From a virus (taxonomy: Duplodnaviria; Heunggongvirae; Uroviricota; Caudoviricetes), in IMG/VR virus record IMGVR_UViG_2721755711_000002: 64,000 nucleotides of DNA. The stretch is one strand, 5' to 3'. The notes below the pieces were generated by a model, which worked only from the letters and a program-made list of their open reading frames with translations, had not been told where the DNA came from and made no database searches. Shown piece after piece: positions 11,000 through 26,755 of the stretch. The position numbers were made by a program, and so were the translations under genes. Positions within the stretch are counted from its first letter, which is position 1. Every line of letters begins with the position of its first letter.

Positions 11000-12703
11000 T
11001 TACCATCCTCCTGAACCAAAACGCCCGCCACGGTCACGCCCGCTGCTGCGTGGGGTGTGTATCTGAAATTTTGCGCTACGCGAAACCGCCAGCGTCCACA
11101 GCATGTGCAGACAGTCCGGGCCATCATCGTGGTCAGCTTTGGGGTAGTGGCGCAGCTGGTCAATCAGCGTCTGATGTGTGTGGCTGATACGAATCAGGCC
11201 GTTGGCCATATGCGGCTGAAGGGATTCGATACGCAGTGCCTTATCCTCCAGCGGGATGACCGGCAGCGCCGGAACCGGTACGCCCAGCGCCGCCGAACGC
11301 TCAACCAGCACGGTACGCAGAAACTCCTGAAACTGAACGGACTCAAACGACCAGCACAGACAGTGGTATTCCCGCTGATACTTGATCACGTCTTCGATAA
11401 TTTTATTCGGCAGACGTCGGCGGATATCGGCTTCAACCACATCCAGAATGCCGGTAAAGCGGTTAAAGCCCCCCACGAGAATGGCTGACGGGTCGCGGTT
11501 TTTATTCTTCTTCCCGAGACTGGGGTCAGCAGCACCATAAAACACCCATTCATCAAGACGGTTAACCCAGAACTTAATGCAGCCCGCAAACAGCGCGTCT
11601 TCACCGCTGACCGGGTCGTTCTGGTATTCAGAATCAAAGGTGTCGTGACCGTCACGGACACGAATTTTCATCAGTGCCAGCAGTGGACGCGCCGCCCATG
11701 ACACCACCGACCCGGCGAGCATGTCGGCTTCGTTCTGCTGATAAAGCGCCTCCGCCGCTTCCGGCTGTTTGTTGCGGATGAGTTCTTCCCACTCGTCCCA
11801 CAGCTTCATGTTGGCAGGCCACTGAATGACGGCCTTAAAACGGGCCGTTTTCCACATCGGGTTATTGAGTGTGCGCGACAGTACGGAGTCGTAATGCAGG
11901 ATGGTCCCGATATAAATAATATCGGTTTTACCGCCAGCCTCGCCCAGCGGCATCACGGTTTTGGTAAGCCAGTTATGCAGCTTGTCGCGCTGCTCCGGGT
12001 TACGCACCATCTCGTCGTTCTCGATGTCGTCGAGGATGACCAGGTCAGGACGGTACGGACCGTGGCGCAGACCACGCAGTTTTTTACCACTACCGGCAAC
12101 GGTCACCTTGATATTGTTGGCTGTGACGATGGTCCCCATACGCCAGACGCGACCCTGCCCACACACCTCCGGGAAATCGTTTTTTAAACGGGGGTTAAAT
12201 TCCAGTTCAGCCTTGATGGCTTCCAGCATCGGATAAGCCTGGTCGATACTGTCCATAATGATGACCGGATAATGCTTAATACCCCGGATAATGGTCCACA
12301 GGGTAAACAGCTGAGTCACCAGCGTGGATTTTGCTTCACCACGGGGCGCGGCGATGGCGTCGTTCTCCGGGTCCGGGCTTGCCACAACCTGTGGCAGACG
12401 GGTGAACAGGTATTTATGCAGCTCACTTTTTGCCGGGTTGCGGACGTAGTGCGGGAAATAGTTTTCGACAAAATAATCGTAGCCCGTCACCGGGTCGCAG
12501 ACTGCCGCCCGGCGGGCCTGTGTGGCCTGCGGGTTAACATCGAACCCCAGACATTCAGCCTCAATGGTCTGGCGGAGGTTGGCGATGTACTCCTGCAGGC
12601 TTCTCTGAAACTCTTTAATGGAAAGTTTACGTTTACGTTTTGCCACGTCACACCTGCGCTGTTTCTGCCTGCGCTTTTTCGATACGTGCGCAGGCGATAT
12701 CAA
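11000..12703 (-). CDS. terminase large subunit (Mu gp28-like)
   Basis: 567 aa ORF preceding portal; N-terminal basic segment; start may be internal because the ORF overlaps the methyltransferase gene end. Confidence 0.75.
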   Translation of the reverse strand: MISPAHVSKKRRQKQRRCDVAKRKRKLSIKEFQRSLQEYIANLRQTIEAECLGFDVNPQATQARRAAVCDPVTGYDYFVENYFPHYVRNPAKSELHKYLFTRLPQVVASPDPENDAIAAPRGEAKSTLVTQLFTLWTIIRGIKHYPVIIMDSIDQAYPMLEAIKAELEFNPRLKNDFPEVCGQGRVWRMGTIVTANNIKVTVAGSGKKLRGLRHGPYRPDLVILDDIENDEMVRNPEQRDKLHNWLTKTVMPLGEAGGKTDIIYIGTILHYDSVLSRTLNNPMWKTARFKAVIQWPANMKLWDEWEELIRNKQPEAAEALYQQNEADMLAGSVVSWAARPLLALMKIRVRDGHDTFDSEYQNDPVSGEDALFAGCIKFWVNRLDEWVFYGAADPSLGKKNKNRDPSAILVGGFNRFTGILDVVEADIRRRLPNKIIEDVIKYQREYHCLCWSFESVQFQEFLRTVLVERSAALGVPVPALPVIPLEDKALRIESLQPHMANGLIRISHTHQTLIDQLRHYPKADHDDGPDCLHMLWTLAVSRSAKFQIHTPRSSGRDRGGRFGSGGW

Positions 12704-13388
12704 AATACTGGTTAGTCATTTCAATGCCGGTAAACCGTCCGCCACGGGCAAGTACAGGGATGGCGGTGGTGCCGCTTCCCATAAACGGATCGAGAACGTG
12801 CGCATCCGGTGCCAGCGGTTTAACCAGCTCGGCCATCAGCTGAACCGGCTTTGCGGTCATGTGCAGTTTTTCGGACGGGACAACACGCTGCGTAATCACA
12901 CCCGGGAACGGGCCACCGTGCGGGCATTTGTCGAGTTTTCCGTTGCTGCCCCAGACCACATACTCGGCCTGATGCCGGAAATAGCCGGTGTGTGGCGCAC
13001 GGGAAGCCTGCGTTTTATCCCAGACAACCAGACCGCGCCACAGCACACCACCGGCCTGAAATGCATCGGTAAGCGCCGGTAGTTGTCGCCAGTCACTGAA
13101 CACCATGAAATAACCGCCGGGATTCAGCCTGTGCAATGCATGAGATATCCACATGGAACACCAGAACGCCCAGCTGCGCTGGTCGCGGTTATCGCCGGTG
13201 AACTCGGCATACTGGGTGTGACCGACATACTTGTCCGAAGGGGCCATGCTGCGGTCTGATTTGTGTGTGCCACCACTGCTGTAAGGCGGGTCGGTAATGA
13301 CGGCATCAAAACGTTCAGATAACGCTGGCAGCACATCAAGAACATCACCGCAATACAACGTTGCGTTACCAATAATCTGTTTTTGCAT
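12648..13388 (-). CDS. DNA methyltransferase (N6-adenine or N4-cytosine type)
   Basis: 246 aa protein with DPPY catalytic motif (AVITDPPYSSGG) early and an FMGSGTT S-adenosylmethionine-binding motif near the C-terminus. Confidence 0.8.
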   Translation of the reverse strand: MQKQIIGNATLYCGDVLDVLPALSERFDAVITDPPYSSGGTHKSDRSMAPSDKYVGHTQYAEFTGDNRDQRSWAFWCSMWISHALHRLNPGGYFMVFSDWRQLPALTDAFQAGGVLWRGLVVWDKTQASRAPHTGYFRHQAEYVVWGSNGKLDKCPHGGPFPGVITQRVVPSEKLHMTAKPVQLMAELVKPLAPDAHVLDPFMGSGTTAIPVLARGGRFTGIEMTNQYFDIACARIEKAQAETAQV

Positions 13389-13434
13389 TACAAATCCCGA
13401 ATATCAGACGGCCCGGAAAACCGGGCCGCTGTGG

Positions 13435-13935
13435 TTAACTGAAATTATCCTCAAGCTCTTTAGCGAAGCCTTCGAGCACCTCAAGAAACGGGGCATACTG
13501 TGCCGGGTGACGCTCCTTGATGAACGCGCCGAGCCGCTGCACCACTTCCAGTGCCGTGGCGAGCCGGTCGGTTTCCGGCAGGATTTTTTTGCTGCTGGCC
13601 ACCGCCTTACTGAGACTGTCGGACAGACTCGCCAGCAGTTCGACGGACTCCTGCGGCGGGATGTCCGGGTTCTGGTTCAGCCGTTCAAGCGTCGTCTGAC
13701 ACTTCACCACCAGACTGATAAGCACGGTGCGGGCGACACTTTCCAGCCCGTCACCGGCGAGCGCGTGCGCGGCCCGCAGCTTGTCCCAGTCGTCGCCGTT
13801 CTTCATCGCCTGCGTTTTCCAGCGCCGCGCGGTGTCGTGCGGCACGGCGTACTTCATGGCGACGATATCCAGCGGAAGCTGGTCAAAGATGTACCCGTTA
13901 CGGACTTTGTCCCTGATATCCTGTGACCACGCCAT
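13435..13935 (-). CDS. Mu gp27-like DNA-binding protein (putative terminase small subunit)
   Basis: 166 aa ORF upstream of the terminase large subunit region. Confidence 0.5.
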   Translation of the reverse strand: MAWSQDIRDKVRNGYIFDQLPLDIVAMKYAVPHDTARRWKTQAMKNGDDWDKLRAAHALAGDGLESVARTVLISLVVKCQTTLERLNQNPDIPPQESVELLASLSDSLSKAVASSKKILPETDRLATALEVVQRLGAFIKERHPAQYAPFLEVLEGFAKELEDNFS

Positions 13936-14141
13936 TAAGTGACCTTCTGAGCCTGTTCAATCAGGCATTTAACTTCGTCGGGATTTTCAAGAACATACAC
14001 GTTTTTCCCGGTATCCAGCTCAATGATCGTGCCACCATATGCACCACACTGACGGTAAAAATGGGTGATGCGTTCAGCGACTACCATGACAGCGCTGGTG
14101 CTCCCTGAGCCTGCGCATTCTGTAAATCTGATAATGCTCAC
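13935..14141 (-). CDS. hypothetical small phage protein
   Basis: 68 aa ORF between lysis genes and gp27-like gene. Confidence 0.35.
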   Translation of the reverse strand: MSIIRFTECAGSGSTSAVMVVAERITHFYRQCGAYGGTIIELDTGKNVYVLENPDEVKCLIEQAQKVT

Positions 14142-14161
14142 TGTGTCAGACCTTCAAAAAA

Positions 14162-14344
14162 TCAGTTCTGCGAACACTGCCGGATGCCGTCAATAATCCG
14201 GCAGACCTTTGCCGCCGCGTCAAACAGCTGGCCCGCTCTGTTAATGTCTGTGCATCCCACCGGAAGCAACATCACCAGAAACAGGGCCAGAACACAGCGC
14301 GCGGCTTTACGTGGCGTTCTGTGGGTCCAGTGCTGACGCGTCAT
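14162..14344 (-). CDS. small lipoprotein (lysis-associated; possible outer-membrane spanin-like)
   Basis: 60 aa protein with signal peptide and lipobox (LLPVGC), three Cys in the roughly 30 aa mature part; start overlaps endolysin stop. Paralog at 27166..27348. Confidence 0.5.
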   Translation of the reverse strand: MTRQHWTHRTPRKAARCVLALFLVMLLPVGCTDINRAGQLFDAAAKVCRIIDGIRQCSQN

Positions 14345-14886
14345 ACCGCTACGCGCTCCTTCAGCCAGCCATAAACAAACGATTCGTTAGCCTCGCGTTT
14401 CTCTGCCAGTTCCAGATAGCGGTCACCCTGCGTGCAGTTCAGGGCTGTCAGCATCACCCGTTCGCCGTCCTGACCGCGATTATTCAGGAAGGCGCGCAAT
14501 GCGCTGATGGTACGAGGTCCGATGCGTCCGTCTGCGTCCATATCCGGGTACAGCCTGCCGCGCAGGTTGAAAACGTTCAGCCAGCGTTGGAGCATTTTTG
14601 ACGCCACGGATGGCCCCATATTCACACCGGTATCACACAGCTCTGCGGCAATATCAGGGGATAATGCCGCAACCTGATCAAATCGCGGGCCATACCAGTA
14701 ATCGGCTTCAAGGATGTCCAGCGCCTGTTCGCGGGTTAACTCACGCATATCGCCACGGTATCCGTGGGCACGGGCGACTTTTTCCGTAATGCCCCATTTG
14801 GTCGGGCCGCCCTTATCATCCGGGTGATTGACGTAACCGCCTTCTTTGCCCAGGACTTCATCAAAAATTTCATCTTTTGATTTCAT
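14341..14886 (-). CDS. endolysin, glycoside hydrolase family 108-like with peptidoglycan-binding domain
   Basis: 181 aa protein; N-terminal ...EGGYVNHPDDKGGPTKWGIT... is the hallmark of GH108 phage muramidases. Confidence 0.8.
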   Translation of the reverse strand: MKSKDEIFDEVLGKEGGYVNHPDDKGGPTKWGITEKVARAHGYRGDMRELTREQALDILEADYWYGPRFDQVAALSPDIAAELCDTGVNMGPSVASKMLQRWLNVFNLRGRLYPDMDADGRIGPRTISALRAFLNNRGQDGERVMLTALNCTQGDRYLELAEKREANESFVYGWLKERVAV

Positions 14887-15172
14887 GTGGATGCCTCAGT
14901 AACGAAAGGATTTTTGACAAATTCCCGTGCGCCCACACGATAAGCGCACAGAAAACCAGATTCAGCGCCACAACCAGCCAGCTGGAGTGCGTGTATGTAC
15001 CGGACAGCCAGCGGAACGGGATGATGATGTAGCCGAGCATCAGCCAGTACGCCAGCCAGGTAATCATCGGTTTATGCGCCGCACCGTGGCGGCGATACAC
15101 AAACAACCCCAGCACAATGGCGAGGCACAGCCAGACGTTCACGATACCGGCAAGGCTACTTTCCATTTCCAC
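14870..15172 (-). CDS. membrane protein (holin-like)
   Basis: 100 aa protein with multiple hydrophobic helices directly upstream of the endolysin. Confidence 0.45.
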   Translation of the reverse strand: MEMESSLAGIVNVWLCLAIVLGLFVYRRHGAAHKPMITWLAYWLMLGYIIIPFRWLSGTYTHSSWLVVALNLVFCALIVWAHGNLSKILSLLRHPHEIKR

Positions 15173-15548
15173 CCCCTCCGCCGCGCAGTCTGGAAAACAG
15201 GCCGAACAGCGATGAAATTTCCTGTTGATAAAGAAAAGTCAGTATCTTGATGGATAAAGCAGAGACACCGACCGCACACAATGCATCGAGCGGTTTGTCG
15301 TTATAGTGGGTCAGCCACTGCATCAGTGACGCAGCCACGCCAGCCCCCAGAACGCCAACCACAAACGCGACGAGCAGGTGAATAGCCATTCGCCATACCG
15401 GGATTTCTTTCTGCTGAGTGACAACAAAAAGCGCCCCGGCAAACGCGCCCACCACGACCCCGAAATCGGTATTGGTGAGAAGGCCAAACACACTGGCACC
15501 ACCGATGGTGACTGCCACAGCTCCGCCGCCTGATAAGGGTTCAGACAT
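15156..15548 (-). CDS. membrane protein (holin/antiholin-like)
   Basis: About 130 aa from ATG 15548 (SD AGGAGAAA); Gly/Ala-rich transmembrane segments. Confidence 0.45.
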   Translation of the reverse strand: MSEPLSGGGAVAVTIGGASVFGLLTNTDFGVVVGAFAGALFVVTQQKEIPVWRMAIHLLVAFVVGVLGAGVAASLMQWLTHYNDKPLDALCAVGVSALSIKILTFLYQQEISSLFGLFSRLRGGGGGNGK

Positions 15549-15730
15549 GAGTTTCTCCTGTAAATCTGAGCCACTGACGGCCCGTAAATAACACCCTGTC
15601 AAAGGCACAAAAGCCTTTTGCAGGGCGCTATCCCTTAAGGTGCCTTGTGGTCTGAGTGGACAGGGTAAACGGTCTGGTGTGGTGGGTACTGCTGGGGGAG
15701 TTCAGCACCCCGCGGCGGCGGGGTGATAAA

Positions 15731-16036
15731 TCAGAAGCGGGAAAGAGAATCCGGCGTAATAAGAGGTTTATTACAAAGCGGAGCAGAGGCGTTCGCCTTT
15801 TCCATCGCTGCGCGCATCTCGTTTTCGCTGGCGATGATGTCAGCAATGGCACACTGCAACGCTTCTTCCTGAACAACCATATCCGGTTGTTCGGCCATTC
15901 GGTTTAACTGACTGGCCAAATTTTTCATATAAGCAAAGCGACGTCCGGCAGCATCCCGGGCCTGCTCTGAGTAGGCCGTATACTCGCCAAGTGCCATATA
16001 GTTGGTCATAAGTGTCTCCTTTTTTCTGAGGCCCAT
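15731..16036 (-). CDS. hypothetical phage protein
   Basis: 101 aa ORF between Mor/C-like gene and membrane protein genes. Confidence 0.3.
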   Translation of the reverse strand: MGLRKKETLMTNYMALGEYTAYSEQARDAAGRRFAYMKNLASQLNRMAEQPDMVVQEEALQCAIADIIASENEMRAAMEKANASAPLCNKPLITPDSLSRF

Positions 16037-16503
16037 TAATCAAAAAGCCCCACCTGAGTGGGGCTTTTCAGCGAAGTCTGTTTTTGTCGTCGGTGTATCA
16101 GCTGCCATGCGTACCGGTCTGAAATGCCGTAACGGGGACAGAGCAGTGCCAGCGCCTGCCGGTGTGAGCATCCGTCTTTTACATGCTGCTGTAAATCAGC
16201 CATAAAACGGGTGTTACGCAGGGCACGTAATGCATGATCGCAACGGGGAATGTAAAACGGAGCACCGCCAAGAAAGCGGATCAGTTTGTTGATTTCGTCT
16301 TCGGTCAGCACATCATGTAACAGGGCATGGACACCGCCGGTTCGTTCGGCGTGTGCGCCGGTTTTACCGCTTAACGTCACGCCACCAAAAGAACGGATTA
16401 ACCGGGTCAGGGCGGGGAAGCCAATCACGCTAATCAGTTGCTGCACGGAATCAGGCAACAGTGCCTGCGCATCGCGAAGATCTGTTTCACTGAAGGTCTG
16501 CAT
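16036..16503 (-). CDS. Mor/C-family transcriptional activator of phage middle/late genes
   Basis: 155 aa; C-terminal ...FYIPR... RYGISDRYAWQLI... resembles the Mor/C helix-turn-helix region; located before the lysis cassette as in Mu. Confidence 0.7.
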   Translation of the reverse strand: MQTFSETDLRDAQALLPDSVQQLISVIGFPALTRLIRSFGGVTLSGKTGAHAERTGGVHALLHDVLTEDEINKLIRFLGGAPFYIPRCDHALRALRNTRFMADLQQHVKDGCSHRQALALLCPRYGISDRYAWQLIHRRQKQTSLKSPTQVGLFD

Positions 16504-16598
16504 GATGGCGTCTCCGGTAGTAACTTACTGTTATTATAGCCATACATGATCGCCTGTACAGACCACAAAAAAGCCCCTGCAAGGCAGAGGCTGATTCT

Positions 16599-26479: not shown

Positions 26480-26755
26480 TTGATCACTACCCCACAGGTA
26501 ACAGAAGACGGTCGTCATGTTGAGGAAGTGCATGTCCTGGGGGATATGTACCGCCTGGAGTTCTATCCGCGTAACACTCATCTTGCAGCGAAGATTGAGT
26601 ATTGCCGGGACGGGAATATTCCGTGCATTCCTGTAGAAAAAGAGGATGAAGCCTACATCATCACACTGAACGGTGACACGGCGCGTTGTATCTGTCGTGG
26701 CGACAGTGAAGCCCGGAATGAAATAGCAAGATGTCGCGCCCATACAGATAAATAA
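26480..26755 (+). CDS. hypothetical ORF, possibly a 3' gene fragment truncated by the Mu-like insertion
   Basis: ORF begins only with a TTG call immediately outside the Mu-like end, without a convincing SD; followed by a strong terminator. Confidence 0.25.
   Translation: MITTPQVTEDGRHVEEVHVLGDMYRLEFYPRNTHLAAKIEYCRDGNIPCIPVEKEDEAYIITLNGDTARCICRGDSEARNEIARCRAHTDK

Follow-up and report, generated by a model that had tools for sequence, protein, structure and literature searches.

What does a solitary DNA methyltransferase do when its gene lies between the genes for a candidate small terminase subunit and the large terminase subunit of a Mu-like prophage? Few accessory genes of temperate phages are as common as those for orphan methyltransferases, and one occupies such a position at the locus analyzed here, within a stretch of 64,000 nucleotides (IMG/VR record IMGVR_UViG_2721755711_000002; the window).

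The methyltransferase gene, its neighbors, and its product

The gene (positions 12648 to 13388, minus strand) is an unbroken ATG-to-TGA open reading frame of 246 amino acids. Its designation in the initial annotation as a DPPY-motif methyltransferase was in agreement with the profile searches, namely Pfam N6_N4_Mtase (PF01555; 1.8e-24, 87.3 bits for a cutoff of 26.7), the PHROG 67 "DNA methyltransferase" profile (1e-54), PADLOC MTase_II (1e-64), and NCBIfam, whose matches all fell far below cutoff. The DPPY of motif IV occupies residues 33 to 36 and the AdoMet-binding motif I, FMGSG, residues 202 to 206 (FMGSGTT, 202 to 208). This order, with motif IV N-terminal and motif I (FxGxG) C-terminal, is that of the beta class, in which motif IV follows the pattern D/S-P-P-Y/F. 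T-DPPY-S was invariant in both homologue alignments and, across 54 homologues ranging from Enterobacterales to Burkholderiales, D200, F202, G204, and S205 were invariant and the central block WRQLP...WRG...W-x-K...YFRHQ.EY..WG was conserved. Alignments covered 96 to 100% of the protein with most homologues among the matches listed, and the dN/dS values against relatives (0.08 to 0.28) point to a functional gene under purifying selection. An identical protein is annotated as "DNA methyltransferase" in RefSeq (WP_073521075.1). As a protein it thus offers nothing new, its gene being an ordinary phage gene that databases already annotate, and as one of a common kind it is of small discovery value in itself.

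Upstream, beyond a spacer of 46 nt, lies a DUF1804 (Mu gp27-like) gene for a candidate small terminase subunit (13435 to 13935, minus strand; Pfam DUF1804, 2.8e-52; phrog_756, 1.8e-67). Downstream, after a single nucleotide, comes terL, encoding a Mu-type terminase large subunit (11000 to 12646, minus strand; phrog_38, 5.3e-144; TIGR01630) and annotated as such in relatives, followed by Portal_Mu and then Mu F. These profile matches confirm the location between the gp27-like and large terminase genes that had been proposed. The overlap with the terL start that had also been described arises only with the longest reading frame, which opens at a TTG at 12703, and was not upheld. Judged from alignments and gene calls, the true start is the GTG at 12646, in the arrangement TGA-C-GTG, since the PHROG terminase profile alignment begins at residue 20 of the TTG-started frame, PGAP places terL of a sister prophage one base past the methyltransferase stop, gene calls in Serratia agree, and a Salmonella homologue has an ATG at the equivalent position (MAKKF... 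versus VAKRK...). The junction, as read from sequence and alignment, is CAGGTGTGACGTG (12644 to 12656, minus strand), comprising the last two methyltransferase codons with the TGA, one spacer base, and the terL GTG; the identical 10 nt CAGGTGTGAC precede terL in alleles without the methyltransferase.

An AF2 model of the protein (pLDDT, 85.4; pTM, 0.84) has beta-class enzymes as its best matches. Foldseek retrieved CcrM, M1.HpyAVI, and M.BceJIV at E values of 5e-16 to 5e-15, with N4CMT, TTHA0409, M.PvuII, M.MboIIA, and M.RsrI as further top matches. The DPPY form of motif IV is typical of adenine enzymes, N4-cytosine enzymes of the beta class usually having SPP[YF], and the chemistry is most probably N6-adenine methylation. 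An N4-cytosine enzyme, which would leave the biology otherwise the same, appears improbable: PF01555 takes in both chemistries, Foldseek matches include 8s9m (E value, 7.5e-15) and M.PvuII (1boo; 9e-12), and the authors of the Burkholderia phage KS5 study kept both options for their homologue (PMC3091744), but motif IV is invariantly DPPY, and the best sequence and fold matches, M1.HpyAVI, CcrM, and M.BceJIV, are adenine enzymes.

An optional cassette, probably of the late operon

DNA nearly identical to this element was found only in prophages of Escherichia coli genomes, and none was found among sequenced phages. Alignment of the junctions with those of E. coli F163 delimited 743 nt of cassette-specific DNA (12657 to 13399, minus strand), in place of which methyltransferase-less sisters have the 7 nt TGTATAC. 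Of 54 E. coli genomes, 20 had that empty junction whole and 34 had it split; the cassette was accordingly scored as present in 34 and absent from 20, with flanks about 95 to 99% identical. E. coli E2348/69 carries it, as does the source strain of APJ78122.1, and strain STEC316 harbors both alleles. The methyltransferase gene is thus an optional one-gene cassette in the DUF1804-terL slot of a Mu-like E. coli prophage, and the near-identical prophages with and without it constitute a natural experiment on any anti-restriction benefit that the enzyme confers.

A crude consensus scan of the minus strand from 15431 to 11000, blind to Mor/C-dependent late promoters of the Mu type, detected no sigma-70-like promoter or terminator-like site; a private promoter that needs such an activator might nevertheless exist. 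The GC content of the gene (0.54 to 0.60) was similar to that of its flanks (0.54 to 0.62). Within the 46-nt spacer, a GC-rich RNA hairpin, CGGCCCGG-UUUU-CCGGGCCG (13405 to 13431, minus strand), is predicted to fold with -26.9 kcal/mol (z = -3.3); it is followed by no U-run and was not called a terminator, and it is also kept in methyltransferase-less alleles such as that of E. coli F163. Judged by its sequence context, the methyltransferase gene is best read as one cistron in the late lysis-packaging operon. Because neither a private promoter or terminator nor a shift in GC content was found, and because it is translationally juxtaposed to terL, it should be switched on together with the late genes and stay silent in a lysogen. 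Silence of prophage methyltransferases in lysogens has been described (PMC5778455).

Relatives and probable function

Relatives sharing at least 50% identity occupy other accessory slots of temperate phages. In Salmonella Mu-like prophages the family is found between the holin and lysozyme genes, and relatives at 63 to 66% identity follow a Gin-like invertase gene, which is the mom position. Further slots lie after Mu portal, tail-fiber assembly, or Ogr genes and at the ends of P2 genomes. The order DUF1804-methyltransferase-terL recurred in Serratia, as well as in several Mu-like contigs from metagenomes (67 to 77% identity). A gene for a Com-like zinc ribbon lies directly ahead of the family member in about 29 of the 80 viral contigs, a placement seen in P2-like phages, and also in phage Chuche, a Delftia prophage, and Smp131 (where the reading frame is annotated "translational regulator"); the zinc-ribbon match among such pairs was to PF10122 (1.1e-11). 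Likewise, gp21 (Com) of Burkholderia phage KS5 adjoins the methylase gp20 (PMC3091744). No such gene stands immediately upstream in the prophage of the window, where the 46-nt spacer encodes nothing and the small upstream reading frames have no Zn_ribbon_Com match, nor was a Com gene found elsewhere in the window; this copy is not a Com-controlled cassette. The occurrence of relatives in the mom position and behind Com-like genes supports a Mom-like, late-expressed anti-restriction role. Moreover, this recurrent link suggests that expression of the family is deliberately gated, as is that of Mom, and such gating would fit a broad, possibly toxic specificity.

The best explanation, to which we give a probability of about 70%, is that the locus encodes a solitary beta-class, most probably N6-adenine, methyltransferase, carried as an optional late-operon cassette, by which phage DNA is marked against restriction. 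The anti-restriction role had been put forward in the initial annotation, and it is the best-supported reading in view of the contexts of the relatives and the precedents in Mu-like phages. As no dedicated signals were detected, transcription of the gene would take place within the late lysis-head operon (holins, endolysin, DUF1804, methyltransferase, terL, portal), so that a lysogen would not express it. Its translation would occur immediately ahead of terL, with the final methyltransferase codons as the putative terL ribosome-binding region. Late in infection, before headful packaging, the enzyme would then methylate the phage DNA that has been replicated and, incidentally, that of the host, and the premodified progeny genomes would resist restriction in the next cell. 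The job would be that of Mom in Mu and of Hia5 and Hin1523 in other Mu-like prophages.

A direct part in packaging, or in late gene expression, has to be weighed against this, as adenine methylation of pac in P1 is needed for terminase cleavage and phage Dam homologues have packaging roles (PMC5005818). In its favor are the location of the gene between DUF1804 and terL, flush with the terL start, and the retention of this arrangement in the Serratia and metagenomic relatives mentioned above. An enzyme integral to packaging, however, does not fit the 20 E. coli prophages that have 96 to 97% identical DUF1804 and terL and lack the methyltransferase entirely, nor the close family members in lysis cassettes, in the mom position, and at P2 ends, far from any terminase. 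We therefore consider such a role quite unlikely. The proposal in the initial annotation that DNA is modified during packaging was drawn from position only, and prophages without the methyltransferase keep the same terminase genes; nothing found ties the enzyme mechanistically to terminase.

Slightly less probable still is the view that the prophage expresses the gene as a true moron, or for lysogenic conversion, and that the enzyme methylates the host chromosome so as to alter host gene expression or protect the lysogen. Its presence or absence between conserved genes would suit such a gene, and there is precedent for prophage methyltransferases that alter host expression (PMC12435837). Against it stand the lack of any promoter- or terminator-like site of its own, the composition shared with the flanks, the location inside a late operon with 1 nt to terL, and the relatives placed behind Com-type translational regulators, which point to tightly restricted late expression; on balance it is very unlikely. 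The term "moron" used in the initial annotation, taken in the sense of Juhala and Hendrix, can thus be retained in part: the gene is extra between otherwise adjacent genes (a 743-nt versus 7-nt indel; 34 prophages with it and 20 without), but neither a promoter and terminator of its own (by simple consensus search) nor a divergent base composition was found. A further reading is a decaying, inactive remnant, or one half of a restriction-modification system with its endonuclease elsewhere, which the initial annotation had named as the findings that would overturn its reading and for which we found no specific support. The intact motifs, full length, alignment coverage, and dN/dS values given above speak against a remnant. 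As had been noted, no restriction endonuclease is adjacent, the neighbors being DUF1804 and terL. A Pfam scan of the sizeable reading frames from 8.2 to 26.2 kb, the right end of the prophage lying beyond the window, revealed no nuclease, each frame matching a Mu-like phage gene, a domain of unknown function, or nothing. No endonuclease was found in a fully annotated sister prophage, and the DUF1804-terL slot of relatives contained only small reading frames (50 to about 200 amino acids). Either form of this explanation is accordingly highly improbable.

Within the anti-restriction reading, a more far-reaching idea can be entertained, although we regard it as doubtful: the family might be a third independent lineage of adenine methyltransferases with relaxed or nearly sequence-independent specificity, a Mom equivalent beside Hia5 and M.EcoGII. 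It is suggested by the short gap of about 27 residues between the EYVVWGS motif and motif X, by a central region almost invariant across E. coli, Delftia, and Stenotrophomonas hosts, and by the Com-type gates and the mom position of relatives. If it were true, the copy between the terS and terL genes would hypermethylate phage DNA just ahead of packaging, and a new m6A enzyme of relaxed specificity would have value as a tool, like M.EcoGII in chromatin methyltransferase footprinting.

Comparison with known systems

Among solved structures, the closest aligned over its full length is M1.HpyAVI (PDB 5HFJ; phmmer, 1e-14; Foldseek, 2e-15), which is similarly small and in which, likewise, only a very short recognition region separates the catalytic half from the AdoMet-binding half. 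Its short target recognition domain is disordered, and its specificity is relaxed (GAGG/GGAG/GAAG) (PMC5173035). It differs from the phage enzyme in sharing only about 23% identity with it and in coming from a Helicobacter pylori cellular restriction-modification system, and its specificity is not transferable. No characterized close homologue for target prediction was found in the PDB (best identity, 23%), in NCBIfam, or in the literature searched. The methyltransferases of Shewanella and Mannheimia Mu-like phages were set aside as guides to the target, being unrelated Dam-type or other enzymes, and a Chania methylome paper yielded nothing transferable.

The nearest group consists of the PHROG 67 phage orphans (Bpm of BPP-1, Chuche, KS5 gp20, and Smp131 gp04), which belong to the same family and are solitary proteins of about 235 to 265 amino acids, likewise borne by temperate phages and presumed to act against restriction. 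By tblastn, identity was 52 to 54% to Chuche and Bordetella phage BPP-1 Bpm and 45% to Smp131, over 94 to 96% of the query. For its part, KS5 gp20 (249 amino acids, pfam01555) is linked to the group through the literature and not by alignment (PMC3091744). Whereas these orphans reside at P2-type genome ends or in other slots, the window gene sits in the DUF1804-terL slot, and it lacks the Com-like regulator found just upstream in at least Chuche, Smp131, and KS5.

M.EcoGII and the methylases of conjugative enterobacterial plasmids resemble the window enzyme in being solitary, beta-class, and borne by mobile elements. M.EcoGII is a lambdoid-borne protein of 349 amino acids, silent in the lysogen (PMC5778455), and M.EcoGIX and its homologues map to the part of conjugative plasmids that is transferred early and are silent except during the plasmid-entry phase (PMC7736820). 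Using as a proxy the M.EcoGII-like protein of phage 1720a-02 (352 amino acids), chosen on the basis of PMC5778455, we found only about 30% identity over 63 and 51 residues near motifs X/I and IV, and identity with M.EcoGII was rejected. The plasmid methylases compared showed 27 to 29% identity; we take these to be of the M.EcoGIX family. By these sequence comparisons, the phage enzyme is outside the M.EcoGII/plasmid methylase subfamily.

Hia5, Hin1523, and Nma1821 are, like the predicted enzyme, adenine methyltransferases of Mu-like prophages and presumed substitutes for Mom, and relatives of the window enzyme, following a Gin-like invertase, share the mom position with Hia5 and Hin1523. In Mu-like prophages without mom, such adenine methyltransferases guard the DNA against many restriction enzymes (PMC3299994). 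The Hia5 family is Dam-related and nonspecific, its DPPY lying near residue 194 (Drozdz et al. 2012, PMC3299994). Membership in it was rejected, as the window enzyme has DPPY at residue 33 and the beta-class motif order, which set it apart from the description of Hia5 in PMC3299994; moreover, its gene lies between DUF1804 and terL and not in the mom position at the prophage's right end. With Mom and Com of Mu itself, the window gene would share the role of a late accessory DNA modification by which a transposable phage is protected from restriction. The protein and the chemistry are unrelated: the product of Mom is given as acetamido-adenine in PMC3299994, whereas the enzyme described here is predicted to methylate.

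The methyltransferase gene and its surroundings

The methyltransferase is encoded on the minus strand by an unbroken ORF (12648..13388) that runs for 246 codons from an ATG to a TGA. Catalytic motif IV (residues 32-40, TDPPYSSGG) lies on the N-terminal side and AdoMet motif I (residues 200-208, DPFMGSGTT) on the C-terminal side, which is the order of beta-class amino-methyltransferases. The protein scored 87.3 bits with Pfam N6_N4_Mtase (cutoff, 26.7), matched PHROG 67 ('DNA methyltransferase') at 1e-54 and the PADLOC Type II methyltransferase model at 1e-64, and fell far under the cutoffs of the NCBIfam equivalogs for CcrM and the PRK11524 adenine-specific methyltransferase. The top PDB matches of an AlphaFold2 model built with 54 homologues as input (mean pLDDT, 85.4; pTM, 0.84) were all beta-class enzymes, namely, CcrM, M1.HpyAVI, M.BceJIV, rotifer N4CMT, TTHA0409, M.PvuII, M.MboIIA, and M.RsrI. 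The DPPY motif and the nearest structures point to N6-adenine chemistry; N4-cytosine methylation is conceivable instead.

An identical protein was already public (WP_073521075.1/APJ78122.1, 'DNA methyltransferase [Escherichia coli]'), and a protein search returned more than 7,000 relatives at E ≤ 1e-10, with 696 sequenced phage records encoding one. The gene is real, intact, already annotated, and a member of a very common class; the initial annotation, which described an orphan methyltransferase with a DPPY motif among the packaging genes of a Mu-like phage, was borne out by the ORF, the motifs, the profile matches, and the neighbors. All methyltransferase alleles examined were full length, and dN/dS ranged from 0.08 to 0.28 in comparisons with relatives from E. 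coli, metagenomes, and Serratia. The 54 homologues share 54 to 81% identity with the window protein; in them, both the catalytic and AdoMet motifs and a long central block, FxDWRQLP..TD..Q.GG..WRG...WDKT..SRAPHTGYFRHQ.EY..WGS, were invariant or almost so. Judged by these alleles, ratios, and motifs, the gene appears to be functional.

On the minus strand, two holins and a GH108 endolysin (14341..15608) are followed by small ORFs, the DUF1804 gene (13435..13935; family of Mu gp27; Pfam, 2.8e-52), the methyltransferase, the Mu-type large terminase gene terL (start, 12646; phrog_38, 5e-144), and then Portal_Mu and Mu F, recognized by Pfam/PHROG matches. Further along are genes for a Mor-family activator, GemA, DUF3164, a MuB-like AAA+ protein, a Mu-type transposase, and a repressor, so that, from its holin-to-repressor content, the window holds the left two-thirds of a Mu-like prophage. 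The Mor/C-family activator gene (minus strand, 16036-16503) is present in a single copy in the part of the prophage inside the window, with a promoter-like site (16560..16533) and a terminator-like hairpin (16592..16572) just upstream; in Mu, Mor and C are separate activators. The left end, minus-strand 5'-TGTGGGG... (TGTGGGGTAGTGATCAATTC), lies at ∼26496, next to another myovirus-type prophage. This unrelated neighbor (26500-49000, plus strand) carries terminase, portal, S49 peptidase, and tail sheath genes, and the abutting ends at ∼26490-26500 suggest that the Mu-like element transposed into or beside it.

An overlap of terL with the methyltransferase had been claimed at the outset; it would span 56 nt if terL were taken as its longest ORF, starting at TTG 12703. 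This overlap proved to be an artifact. The terminase PHROG alignment to that ORF begins only at residue 20, the start lies 1 base past the methyltransferase stop according to both PGAP in E. coli and the gene calls in Serratia, a Salmonella homologue has an ATG at the equivalent residue, and terL of prophages without the methyltransferase has the same GTG start. The junction therefore reads ...CAG GTG TGA C GTG..., with terL starting at 12646. Within TerL's basic N-terminal tail (minus strand, 12623-12640), an in-frame 6-nt AAACGT repeat difference adds Lys-Arg with respect to the prophage of E. coli strain F163, the methyltransferase-less alignment reference; TerL has 548 amino acids here and 546 in relatives.

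An optional cassette between the DUF1804 gene and terL

Positions 11000 to 14200 are 95 to 99% identical to prophages in 54 of 5,426 complete E. coli genomes. The methyltransferase is absent from 20 of these 54, where the DUF1804 gene and terL are still 96 to 97% identical to the window. When the 54 genomes were searched with a 141-nt probe spanning the methyltransferase-less junction, it was unbroken in exactly those 20 and split in the remaining 34, E2348/69 among them. Strain STEC316 (NZ_CP041431.1) carries two prophage copies of this type, one with and one without the methyltransferase cassette (matches H6 and H144). In the junction alignment, 743 nt of the window (12657..13399) face 7 nt (TGTATAC) in the methyltransferase-less allele. 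The left boundary falls just after a conserved hairpin and the right one just before the 10-mer CAGGTGTGAC, which precedes terL in both alleles and in the cassette allele also forms the last two codons and stop of the methyltransferase. With these boundaries, the indel comprises little more than the ORF.

The gene had been labeled a moron. It is indeed optional, but no promoter-like or terminator-like site was found flanking it on its own strand, and its GC content equals that of its flanks; since own transcription signals and foreign composition are two defining features of a moron, the label does not hold. The methyltransferase looks like a further cistron within the late operon.

The hairpin (minus strand, 13405-13431) directly follows the DUF1804 stop and is GC-rich, with an 8-bp stem (CGGCCCGG/CCGGGCCG) and a UUUU loop. 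For the 76 nt that include it, the folding energy was -26.9 kcal/mol (z = -3.3). The hairpin is kept in prophages with and without the methyltransferase, with no U-run behind it, and may be an mRNA-stabilizing or attenuating element between the DUF1804 gene, a candidate small terminase gene, and terL.

Across this phage lineage the slot generally varies in content and is a hotspot for accessory genes: whether or not they have the methyltransferase, relatives hold other small ORFs in it, and an endonuclease-sized gene was never seen there. The ORFs differ among relatives (L002, 7543-8758; L020, 3505-4000; L043, 4742-5228; L046, 2427-4000), and the Salmonella slot contains a reverse-strand ORF of ∼160 amino acids. 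No endonuclease gene appears in the full annotation of the sister prophage of strain GPEC349-628, and its right end has no gene annotated as mom or com.

Contexts of the family and the link with Com

The Serratia arrangement is identical to that of the window. A copy with 61% identity lies between holin and lysozyme in Mu-like prophages of Salmonella, and in a Delftia P2-like prophage the gene is at the element end, past the portal gene. Among the best 80 IMG/VR loci, ∼11 showed the DUF1804-methyltransferase-terL order and ∼29 a Com-like zinc-ribbon ORF directly upstream of the methyltransferase. Copies with 63 to 66% identity directly follow a Gin-like serine invertase (Resolvase, 5e-51; two loci sampled, L024 3349-3924 and L028 3322-3939), which is the mom position in Mu. 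Other copies lie behind a tail-fiber assembly gene, an Ogr/Delta gene, lysozyme, or Mu portal.

Com was a direct Pfam match in phage Chuche (PF10122, 1.1e-11), and the equivalent ORF of Smp131 is annotated 'translational regulator'. The Delftia locus (L005, 4802-5098, plus strand) contains an uncalled Com-like zinc-ribbon ORF (IRCGQCGRKLA...IKCPRCGTMN, CxxC...CxxC pattern) running into the start of the methyltransferase gene; judging from this one locus, gene callers may have overlooked such Com genes elsewhere too. The aspects inviting follow-up are only this link with Com and the mom position and the natural prophage pairs with and without the cassette.

Specificity and proposed role

No characterized close relative was found. 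Conjugative-plasmid methylases are only 27 to 29% identical to the window protein, and identity with M.EcoGII was rejected, only motifs being common to both. In the nearest solved full-length relative, M1.HpyAVI (∼23% identity), the recognition region is disordered and unusually short, and the specificity is relaxed (GAGG/GGAG/GAAG; PMC5173035). The window protein is also short there (∼27 residues from the EYVVWGS motif to motif X), and the loops modeled with low confidence (residues 39-70 and 131-140) are the counterparts of those described as contacting DNA in M1.HpyAVI (PMC5173035). A short or degenerate, or even nearly nonspecific, target seems rather unlikely, with some room left for it by three features: the recognition region is small, the family is associated with Com and the mom position, and its central region is strongly conserved across distant hosts.

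The initial annotation placed DNA modification during packaging. Proximity to terL does not imply such a role, because 20 sister prophages that lack the methyltransferase package with these same terminase genes. The most economical reading, and a reasonable one, is that of a solitary adenine methyltransferase which would be expressed late and would premodify progeny phage DNA against restriction. The operon context would make expression late and silent in the lysogen, in agreement with the silence reported for M.EcoGII in the lysogen (PMC5778455). In Burkholderia phage KS5, gp21 (Com) is adjacent to gp20 (methylase), which its authors proposed to shield phage DNA from restriction (PMC3091744). 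The proposed role is that of Mom of Mu, and the Dam-like Hia5/Hin1523/Nma1821 enzymes have the same one in Haemophilus and Neisseria Mu-like prophages without mom (PMC3299994). Hia5/Hin1523 parallel the L024/L028 group in their mom position, but these Dam-like enzymes, Nma1821 included, belong to a class unrelated to the window methyltransferase.
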